Below, piece by piece: positions 3,164 through 64,000 of a stretch of DNA of 64,000 nt (the stretch's first letter is position 1; every line of letters starts with the position of its first letter). Source of the DNA: Candidatus Micrarchaeota archaeon (GTDB taxonomy: Archaea; Micrarchaeota; Micrarchaeia; Micrarchaeales; CABMGC01). Location of the stretch: positions 8,678-72,677 of the forward strand of contig JAKAVK010000014.1 in assembly GCA_021817325.1 (NCBI GenBank). The letters are read 5' to 3'. Position numbers and translations under genes: made by a program. The notes under the pieces are model-generated. The model saw nothing but the letters and a program-made list of their open reading frames with translations, was not told where the DNA came from and searched no databases.

Positions 3164-4204
3164 TCAGATCTGTTCGAAGCCCATTCCAGATGCTGCCGTC
3201 TCAGACTCGTTGTTGCCAAGCACCGAACTTCCGCTTACCCCTGTGAATATGGCAATTACCTCGACCTTGCCGTTGTAAGACGGGTCAAGTCTGGCCCCCC
3301 ATATAACGTTGGCATTTGGGGATGCGCTCTCAGTGAGCTTGGAACCTATGGTGTTTGCCTCGCCTAGCGTCATGTCCGTGCCTCCGGTTATGTGAAGCAG
3401 TATGCCTGTCGCGTTCTCATAATCAACGTCAAGCAGCTTGTTCTTCAGTGTCCTCGCAACCACTTCCTCTACCCTGTTAGTGCCGCTCGCCTCCCCGACG
3501 CTTATCATAGCAAGGCCCCCGCCCCTCATTATGGTCCGCACGTCAGCAAAATCGGTATTGACAAGGCTGGGCTGCGTTATTGCCTCTGTTATGCCCCTCA
3601 CCGCCTTTGCGGTTATCTCATCTGCAAGTGCAAACGTCTTCTCTATGGGCAGGTTTGGATACAGCTTCACAAGCCTCTGGTTGTCTATAACTATCAGGGT
3701 GTCGAGGTTGTGCCTGAGTCTGTCTATTCCTCTTCTTGCGGTCTCGAGCCTGACCCTCTCCAGTGCAAACGGTATCGTTACGACACCAACAACTATTGCT
3801 CCAGATTCCTTAAGCACACGCGCCACTATCGGAGCTGCGCCTGTTCCTGTGCCACCTCCCATCCCCGCCGTAAGGAATGCAAGGTTAGTGTCCTTCACCA
3901 GCAGCTCAATGTCTCCGCGCGAAAGCTCTGCGGCTTTCTCTCCTACTTCGGGATAGCCTCCTGCCCCAAGCCCATGCGTTATCTGTTTGCCGAGCATTAG
4001 CCTTGTTATATTTGGATTGAGCATGTTGAGCTGCTTGCCATCGGTATTGAATGCAAATAGACCGGCGCCCTTTATCTCCATCGTACTGAGCCTATGTATC
4101 GTGTTATTGCCTCCTCCGCCAACTCCTACCACTGAGATTCTTGGCTTGAAGAATTCTGCTTCCTCGTTAAGCTTCTGGTTCTGCGAAATTATCGACTCAT
4201 ACAT
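3164..4204 (-). CDS. ftsZ: Cell division protein FtsZ (FtsZ2-type paralog)
   Basis: [10 protein letters not shown], tubulin signature [10 protein letters not shown]7-loop NTDFAD; start placed at MYESI (4204). Confidence 0.95.
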
Positions 4205-62765: not shown

Positions 62766-62896
62766 ATAACCTGTTTATGGAGTTTATTATGGCCAGAAGC
62801 AGCGCTTCAGTTCTTATCGGTTCAGTGTATCCATCCGTTTCTTCCCGTAATGCTTCCCATCCTGCGCACTTCTGGCTTTAACTACGTGAGCGGGAA

Positions 62897-62937
62897 ATCC
62901 CACGCCCTCTTTAGAGGGTTCCCTTTAGGGGTGGGAT
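62897..62937 (+). repeat. IS605 left-end subterminal hairpin (branched)
   Basis: Outer stem ATCCCAC/GTGGGAT enclosing two TTTA-loop hairpins, CCCTC-TTTA-GAGGG and CCC-TTTA-GGG. Confidence 0.8.
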
Positions 62938-63007
62938 GGGAGCGAACCGCTGTCATATGGAGTATGATGACAATAGTTATATATAAGAGTATGCTCATAT
63001 ATTAGTC

Positions 63008-63406
63008 ATGCCAAAAGGATATAGTGCTTCCGAGACAAGTGTTCATTTCATGGGCTATCATTTTGTCTGGTGTCCGAAGTATAGAAGAAAGGTATTGGTT
63101 GGTAAAGTGGAACAACGACTAAAGGAACTGATAAAGGAAAAGGCAGAACGATTAGAGTGTAAAGTCCTTGCACTTGAAGTCATGCCAGACCACGTTCATC
63201 TCTTCATAGAAGGCAAACCTCTCCAGACACCGAACTACATAATCGGGCAGATAAAGGGATACACCTCTCATCAACTAAGGGAAGAATTCGCAGACCTGCG
63301 ACTAAAACTTCCGACACTGTGGACAAGGAGTTATTTTGTGTCAACACATGGGCATATTTCAGATGCTCTAATCAAGAAATACATAGATGAACAAAAGGGG
63401 ATGTAA
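63008..63406 (+). CDS. tnpA: IS200/IS605 Y1 (HUH) transposase TnpA
   Basis: YHFVWCPKYRRKVL, MPDHVHLF (HUH), IKGYTS, LWTRSYFVST, KYIDEQ (catalytic Tyr). Confidence 0.97.
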   Translation: MPKGYSASETSVHFMGYHFVWCPKYRRKVLVGKVEQRLKELIKEKAERLECKVLALEVMPDHVHLFIEGKPLQTPNYIIGQIKGYTSHQLREEFADLRLKLPTLWTRSYFVSTHGHISDALIKKYIDEQKGM

Positions 63407-63651
63407 TGAAAAAGAACCTGCTTTTATTGGCTCTCATAGGGATTGTCCTAATTGTTATTGGAATCTATCTGGTTCAGGCTGATTATGGGTCTTGCCCTGC
63501 ACAAACTACAAACACAGGTTGTTACCATATCTTATTTGGTTTCTTACCGATGTCTCCAACAGGGTGGTTATTGATAATCATCGGTATAATTCTAAATATA
63601 CGCAGTATCTTGATTGATTATATTGTATCAAAAGAGAAGAGGAAGAGATAA
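63406..63651 (+). CDS. Small two-TM membrane protein carried inside the IS
   Basis: 81 aa: TM - loop with two Cys - TM - basic tail; start and stop overlap tnpA and tnpB by one base. Confidence 0.7.
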   Translation: MKKNLLLLALIGIVLIVIGIYLVQADYGSCPAQTTNTGCYHILFGFLPMSPTGWLLIIIGIILNIRSILIDYIVSKEKRKR

Positions 63652-64000
63652 TGGAAGTGGCAAGAGCTTATAAGTTCAGAATCTACCCTGATGCCACAAG
63701 GCAGGAGGAGATAGATGAACGTCTAATCCTTGCACAGCAATTCTACAACAAGATTCTTGAGAAGTCAATCGAATCCCATAAAAAAGGAAAGACAAAGGTT
63801 TCGATGGCTCAGTTCAACAGGTTTGTAAAAGAGATAATCCGAGAAGACAAGAAATACCTAAAACTCTATTCGCAGACAAGATGTGAGATAGAATTCAGGC
63901 TTCTCAAGGCATACCAGAACTTCTTCAGAAGAATCAAGGAAGGAAACAAGAAGGCAGGGTTCCCAAGATTCAGGTCAAGGGAAAGGTACAAGTCAATAAC
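63651..64000 (+). CDS. tnpB: RNA-guided endonuclease TnpB, N-terminal part (runs off the window)
   Basis: Manual translation from ATG 63651: MEVARAYKFRIYPD...AYQNFFRRIKEGNKKAGFPRFRS. Confidence 0.95.
   Translation, partial: MEVARAYKFRIYPDATRQEEIDERLILAQQFYNKILEKSIESHKKGKTKVSMAQFNRFVKEIIREDKKYLKLYSQTRCEIEFRLLKAYQNFFRRIKEGNKKAGFPRFRSRERYKSI

Follow-up and report, generated by a model that had tools for sequence, protein, structure and literature searches.

The described elements closest to the one treated here are those of the canonical IS605 subgroup such as IS608 of Helicobacter pylori and ISDra2 of Deinococcus radiodurans, in which the gene for a Y1 HUH transposase, TnpA, is followed on the same strand by the gene for TnpB. 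Such insertion sequences (IS) have subterminal hairpins instead of inverted repeats, insert beside a short specific sequence (TTAC and TTGAT for IS608 and ISDra2) and carry a structured 3' region abutting the right end. IS200/IS605 elements have been taken as minimal, with TnpA for movement and TnpB plus an omegaRNA for retention. The same layout of genes, ends and 3' region is found in an element at the end of a 64,000-nucleotide stretch of DNA (the window) from a Candidatus Micrarchaeota archaeon, but here a third conserved gene lies between tnpA and tnpB, coupled to its neighbours at both ends; the host is one of the DPANN archaea, its genome coming from acid mine drainage, and TTAAC is the presumed target. 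The window corresponds to C24:8678-72677 in a 991-kb assembly of 32 contigs, and contig C24 extends 1,080 bases beyond it.

Accessory genes in IS605 elements are only now under study. An example is Arc, a ribbon-helix-helix (RHH) repressor, which is a small conserved accessory protein inside IS605-family elements, and the overlapping gene arrangements in the Arc elements are thought to affect expression (bioRxiv 10.64898/2026.09.24.754181). Arc is soluble and DNA-binding and is encoded beside, or divergently from, tnpA/tnpB (bioRxiv 10.64898/2026.09.24.754181), whereas the third gene here lies between the two and its product appears to be a membrane hairpin without a DNA-binding fold; neither an RHH nor any other Pfam domain was found in it. 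The word "membrane" does not occur in the Arc-IS605 paper (bioRxiv 10.64898/2026.09.24.754181). A different comparison is offered by the passenger-gene insertion sequences (transporter IS, or tIS, in ISfinder usage), where the two ends enclose, and carry along, a gene that has no part in transposition. The present element is of this kind in that the gene lies within the ends, near-identical copies are found at different sites, and close relatives are without the gene. A literature search, with ISfinder outside its scope, found no description of a gene, for a membrane protein or any other, between tnpA and tnpB. We know of no description of IS200/IS605 passenger genes at the tnpA/tnpB junction.

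A first-pass annotation, made from the letters of the window, had proposed an IS605 element at 63008-64000 with the order tnpA, an 81-aa open reading frame (ORF) and tnpB, and with TAATG on both sides of the ORF. The ORF calls agree with this order and with both junctions: at 63404-63408 the stop of tnpA overlaps the start of the middle ORF, and at 63649-63653 the stop of the middle ORF overlaps the start of tnpB. The proposed extent held for the genes but not for the limits of the element, which starts at 62883 and ends 905 bases past the window, at C24 73582 (window equivalent 64905), the full length being 2,023 bp. The boundaries were taken as the points where similarity stops among aligned copies from different sites. 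No ORF other than the three genes is found inside the element. The first-pass annotation had named two ways in which it could be wrong, a one-off insertion absent from other copies and a chimeric assembly, and neither was found. Logan contigs from four separate mine-drainage and tailings runs cover the region from the flank through the tnpB start with 0 differences (an 11,010-nt contig of run X1, for example, spans L001 2300-3379), and the depth at the junctions equals that of the flank. Because four independent metagenomes agree without a mismatch at flank-level depth, the junctions are not an assembly artefact, and a chimera is ruled out. The source sequence is present in mine-drainage, tailings and sediment metagenome runs, and the closest TnpA loci are held by metagenome-assembled genomes (MAGs) labelled Candidatus Micrarchaeota. 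We consider it very probable that the IS605 element is intact and that the middle gene is a genuine, conserved accessory part of it.

Relatives of the element, identified by genome search and TnpA scan, were found both with and without the middle gene; a scan of genome contigs with the middle-protein alignment gave no confirmed relative. Homologues of the middle gene with enough surrounding sequence lie in the same coupled three-gene position; at least 9 such elements, diverged and inserted at different sites, come from genomes (G060, which belongs to another family within the same taxonomic order, G383 and G030) as well as from metagenome contigs (L010-L012, L013-L018, L019 and L117). Elements with the middle gene occur in several Micrarchaeota families and probably in Thermoplasmata as well. 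The gene was found in 5 of the 401 sampled genomes of the phylum, representing four genera in two families, and a profile search of 1.84 billion representative proteins gave 3 clusters below 1e-10 and 14 below 1e-3. Among the best 80 TnpA relatives in a species-level genome collection, 76 have tnpB matches that start at or beside the tnpA stop with no middle gene, and the few apparent gaps between tnpA and tnpB in these relatives are tnpB reading frames, not extra genes.

The homologues of the middle gene, which form groups of 74-99% and 47-49% identity, have the same motifs. Conserved in the alignment are D-x-GSCP, LFGFLPM-x-PTG, the glycine-rich second helix and the basic tail; the second Cys sits 8-13 residues after the GSCP motif, or 4 residues before it, and the differences in loop length are all whole codons. 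The pairwise ratio of nonsynonymous to synonymous divergence (dN/dS) is 0.19-0.38 at dS 0.2-1.6, and 0.15 for the relic in G018 described below, and the gene is, as judged from these sequences, under purifying selection. Both overlaps are retained in 8 of 9 full elements although the synonymous divergence of the middle gene reaches at least 1, and for this reason the arrangement is more than chance; in G030 the second junction is a 7-nt spacer and not an overlap. In every full copy the gene falls within the limits of the element. Copies that differ by 1-2 mismatches over ~2 kb are preceded by three different left flanks, so the three-gene unit has moved recently as a whole. The suggestion that this is a selected three-gene operon and not a one-off insertion is thus borne out by the purifying selection and by the coupled position, which diverged elements share at many sites.

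Some relatives show what the element looks like without the gene, or the gene without the element. In L021, a Micrarchaeota MAG with a TnpA that is 94% identical, tnpA is joined directly to tnpB through the overlap ...ATGTAATGGAA, and a contig of run X21 has the direct junction by way of TGATG. Since the two genes join directly in these two cases, the middle gene occupies the ancestral overlap exactly, with TAATG now on each side. In G364, a genome of another family of the class, an internal stretch of 141 nt has been deleted without a shift of frame, which leaves a 37-aa ORF, with helix 1 joined to the tail and with the overlaps with both neighbours kept; the deletion is secondary, because the TnpB of G364 groups among the TnpBs which accompany the middle gene. 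In G018, flanked by ProRS and an EamA gene, is a relic made up of a degenerate left end, the last tnpA codons, an intact 80-aa middle gene, the first tnpB bases and a degenerate right end. Its ORF is identical in three assemblies and has a dN/dS of 0.15 against P0007, the nearest element-borne relative. The relic is built similarly to miniature inverted-repeat or palindrome-associated transposable elements (MITEs, PATEs), with both ends and a short insert, yet it carries an intact ORF; typical PATEs are non-coding. The existence of L021, the X21 contig, G364 and the relic means that the element can do without the gene. Transposition probably proceeds without it as well, and the variants suggest that the gene can be retained on its own merits.

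The product has a basic N-terminus, helix 1, the loop D-x-GSCP-x8-C-YH-x-LFGFLPM-x-PTG, helix 2 and the basic tail SKEKRKR; in the family it is 76-87 aa long, and the length of the loop is variable. The two-helix protein with a C-x8-C loop that had been read from the translation is recovered, with C30-x8-C39 present and with two long hydrophobic helices, residues 2-28 and 52-80, in the AlphaFold model (mean predicted local distance difference test score, pLDDT, 69). From the positive-inside rule the protein is presumably an N-in/C-in hairpin with the Cys loop outside and both basic ends in the cytoplasm. A cleaved signal peptide instead of helix 1, with cleavage after VQA or IQA and before D, was considered and is less likely, since distant homologues carry Q, M or L at position -1.

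The first-pass annotation had asked whether the middle gene occurs only in IS605 context, and it does not. Distant homologues with 33-40% identity and the pattern GSCP...C...G-x-x-P-x-x-P-x-G are found at loci without tnpA or tnpB. Because they lie outside IS605 elements, the simplest reading suggested by the sequences would be capture of a free-standing small membrane-protein gene. The 76 tnpB-matched relatives without the middle gene can be listed for capture too, as can the GC content of the element (41%, and 36% in the middle gene) against the 51% of the genome. Against capture stands that two of the distant homologues are near unrelated transposases and that the homologues may themselves be mobile. 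At two of these loci (L106 4283-4555 and L107 3495-3860) the distant homologues adjoin other small two-helix membrane proteins with Cys-pair loops of their own, a hint that some archaeal genomes have such small Cys-loop proteins in arrays. At a third (L109 3403-3881) the homologue P0021, 40% identical, lies beside an IS240-type transposase and overlaps by 4 nt a preceding 77-aa ORF with a weak match to the RHH family PF21432, the layout being toxin-antitoxin-like and unproven.

What the gene does for its carriers can be read in more than one way. We give somewhat better than even chances to the reading that it is cargo independent of transposition, and neither an addiction toxin nor a pure coupling device; the protein would then have a membrane function that is selectable separately from transposition. 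The first-pass annotation had thought of a toxin, exclusion or addiction protein, that is, a selfish membrane module (addiction toxin, holin-like or exclusion factor) which would make losing the element costly or shut out rivals and in this way add to the retention already given by TnpB homing. The protein resembles class II holins and some membrane toxins in being small and in having two hydrophobic helices with a highly basic tail at the C-terminus; the gene sits in a selfish element and is retained in G018 when the transposition genes decay, and the distant homologue in L109 is paired with an RHH-like ORF, at E 0.026, below the cut-off. However, the middle protein has neither profile similarity to holins and small membrane toxins nor a lysis cassette or antitoxin to go with it. 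No match to toxin, holin or defence models was found, and these roles are hypothetical; the 2-kb element holds no antitoxin candidate, and the relic keeps the gene without a partner. The conserved Cys-loop motif, placed outside the cytoplasm, is atypical of simple depolarising toxins, and relatives without the gene, or with the deletion in it, persist. We hold this explanation to be unlikely.

The ORF could also be a translated spacer that sets the TnpA:TnpB ratio or delays TnpB, with the peptide itself being secondary. Overlaps at both junctions in 8 of 9 full elements would be expected of a spacer, the G364 deletion is in frame and keeps the overlaps, and in elements that lack the middle gene tnpA and tnpB overlap directly in the same way; in IS91, the accessory gene orf121 is cited as influencing transposase expression via gene overlap (bioRxiv 10.64898/2026.09.24.754181). 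A spacer would not, however, explain purifying selection at the amino-acid level, or why homologues outside IS605, down to 33% identity, share the conserved Cys, GSCP and LFGFLPM motifs. The G018 relic retains the ORF with no tnpB to couple, the second junction of G030 is not an overlap, and any deletion has a 1-in-3 chance of being in frame; we regard a mere spacer as quite unlikely. A neutral hitchhiker or spurious ORF, kept since its deletion would disturb tnpB expression, could be patchy in its occurrence (5/401 genomes), lost or broken in several relatives and the fastest-evolving part of the element, as this gene is. It would hardly show a dN/dS of 0.15-0.38 over a dS of up to more than 1, loop-length changes that are all in frame and motifs common to distant homologues, and an 81-codon open frame is unlikely by chance in 36% GC DNA. 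This last possibility is extremely improbable.

A number of observations weigh against a conserved cargo gene in a mobile element and should be noted together. The constraint on the middle gene is weaker than that on its neighbours, as its dN/dS exceeds the values for tnpA (0.01-0.06 against close relatives) and tnpB (0.10-0.15, pairwise). The middle protein gave nothing above threshold in Pfam, PHROGs, PADLOC, NCBIfam or Foldseek against the PDB, the Foldseek result being uninformative because the query was a two-helix model of pLDDT 69, and the setting of the gene does not point to a function either. In the RNA runs searched for expression only relatives without the middle gene were matched. 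The relic is found at one locus, that in G018, and diverged in part before it decayed. In L020 (3396-3496; Micrarchaeota, TnpA 97% identical) codon 16 of the middle gene is an in-frame TGA, which may mark a pseudogene or be a sequencing error in a contig of 1.3x coverage. The element is the only one in the assembly bearing tnpA, and an empty site was not found, the same-genus species being only 68-79% identical in the flanking gene and none of them spanning the junction.

Returning to the cargo reading, the history of the element would be as follows. A lineage gained the third gene exactly at the ancestral stop-start overlap of tnpA and tnpB, most likely by capture from a family of small, free-standing membrane proteins of archaea. 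Translation would pass from tnpA to the middle gene and on to tnpB through the two TAATG overlaps, probably on a leaderless mRNA, and the element would take the gene along from one Micrarchaeota lineage to another, and probably to Thermoplasmata as well. The divergence between the present element and L013 is uneven along the element (dS 0.27 in tnpA, 1.08 in the middle gene and 0.53 in tnpB), and L021 has a near-identical tnpA and a clearly different N-terminus of TnpB, from which it seems that the modules recombine at the junctions.

The neighbours of the element point to exchange between archaeal groups. In L010-L012 it abuts an 84-aa gene whose relatives are labelled Thermoplasmata, Ferroplasma and Cuniculiplasma (62-77% identity); of 251 Micrarchaeota genomes only one has this gene, at 48% identity. 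A neighbour gene in L013 falls in a cluster of at least 90% with a protein labelled Marsarchaeota. Because these neighbour genes match labels other than Micrarchaeota, the element family probably crosses between DPANN and other archaea of the same acidic habitats, the hosts assigned from short contigs being provisional. Thermoplasmata such as Cuniculiplasma host Micrarchaeota. The L010 copy (3322-4001) has a TnpA with the first half from another IS200 lineage and a C-terminal half identical to the family, 73% identity overall. No left end is visible in it, and the tnpA start overlaps, as TGATG, the stop of the 84-aa gene, which is a conserved two-helix membrane gene of Thermoplasmata type. This copy is either rearranged and immobilised, or recombinant.

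The features of the element that lie in the window are given in Table 1.

Table 1. Positions of the element's features in the window
Feature	Position	Strand	Basis
TTAAC pentanucleotide, presumed insertion target and TnpB transposon-associated motif (TAM)	62878-62882	+	flank alignment
Left end (LE), with subterminal imperfect hairpin at ~62897-62937	62883-63007	+	near-invariant among relatives
Archaeal TATA-box-like motif TTATATATAAG, centre ~26 nt 5' of the tnpA ATG	62977-62987	+	sequence
tnpA, 132-aa Y1 HUH transposase	63008-63406	+	Pfam Y1_Tnp, E 1.2e-39
Middle gene, 81-aa small membrane protein	63406-63651	+	ORF call, homologues of 42-99% identity
tnpB, first 116 codons in the window	63651-64000	+	HTH_OrfB_IS605 match

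Both transposition genes appear to be intact. TnpA matches NCBIfam transpos_IS200 with 142 bits (cut-off 55), and its catalytic motifs H62-V-H64 and Y125 are in place. The full tnpB codes for 403 aa and is located at C24 72328-73539, its end being equivalent to window position 64862. TnpB matches NCBIfam guided_TnpB with 258 bits (cut-off 100) and aligns over its full length to the ISDra2 TnpB structures 8h1j and 8exa (E 1.8e-53), the closest among the solved natural structures; it has the zinc finger (C325xxC...C343xxC) and the RuvC triad in common with these. Whether the RuvC D-E-D residues and an omegaRNA are there had been named as checks by the first-pass annotation. D188, E273 and D353 are all present. 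For the omegaRNA the answer is divided: the 3' 180 nt of the element have a conserved multi-stem consensus fold (44 pairs, 7 compensatory) which is omegaRNA-like and would fit an omegaRNA scaffold, but the region has no match in Rfam at E <= 1. In RNA run X21, a mine-drainage transcriptome of 2015, the contig depth is 48-305 near the right end of related elements (compared over L001 4491-4583, the omegaRNA/right end) and ~13 on tnpA; this fits abundant guide-RNA-like transcripts, and the comparison is confounded by flanking genes and by being a contig-depth measure.

The ends are subterminal imperfect hairpins on both sides, without terminal inverted repeats. The hairpin of the left end has a DNA fold of -14.5 kcal/mol (z -2.1); a CCCAC...GTGGG stem is common to the left- and right-end hairpins, both of which fold with z about -2, and the right-end stem shows compensatory changes among element lineages within the same genome. 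The right boundary reads ...GGATGTCAC. To the left of T(T/A)AAC similarity is lost in 6 of 7 elements at different sites, and the role of TTAAC as target and TAM is presumed by analogy with the IS608 and ISDra2 paradigm. No target-site duplication was seen at the right end in the aligned copies. The motif TTATATATAAG is unchanged in every aligned copy and may serve as promoter, in agreement with the known position of archaeal TATA boxes; its distance to the ATG suggests that the operon mRNA is leaderless. Taken from its sequence, the element is a complete, apparently active insertion sequence with the defining features of the IS200/IS605 family, its target specificity and omegaRNA being supported, short of proof.

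The same genome contains a multi-copy tnpB-only (IS1341-like) family, with TnpB 50-65% identical to that of the element, which breaks many contigs. Left ends of this family are found at the ends of C5, C1, C23, C20 and C11, and right ends on C4, C23, C24:1-177, C25, C11, C31, C3 and C15. The left end, which starts with TGATAAATAATTCGCCCCGC..., and the apparent target differ from those of the element studied here; the right-end terminus GGAGGATGTCAC is common to both, with the hairpin stem changed in a compensatory way. The single tnpA of the assembly might mobilise the tnpB-only copies in trans. Starting ~32 nt past the right end of the element there is a repeat (C24 ~73614-73757, window equivalent ~64937-65080) which recurs with 98-100% identity on C7, at either end, and at the end of C30; this means that another repeated element adjoins and ends the contig.

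It can be speculated that the small protein is a membrane module for addiction or exclusion, or else a surface factor that helps the element to pass between the symbiotic Micrarchaeota and the Thermoplasmata that host them. We consider this a long shot. If true, the element would be the first of the IS200/IS605 family to add a membrane-acting function to mobility by TnpA and homing by TnpB. Whatever its function, one community provides a natural series of elements with the gene, elements without it, an in-frame remnant and a gene-only relic, and with this series one can ask what the third gene adds and how expression of TnpB is coupled to that of TnpA. The element also marks gene flow among DPANN archaea, and probably with the Thermoplasmata that host them, and its compact archaeal TnpB, with TTAAC as the likely TAM, is one more candidate for testing.

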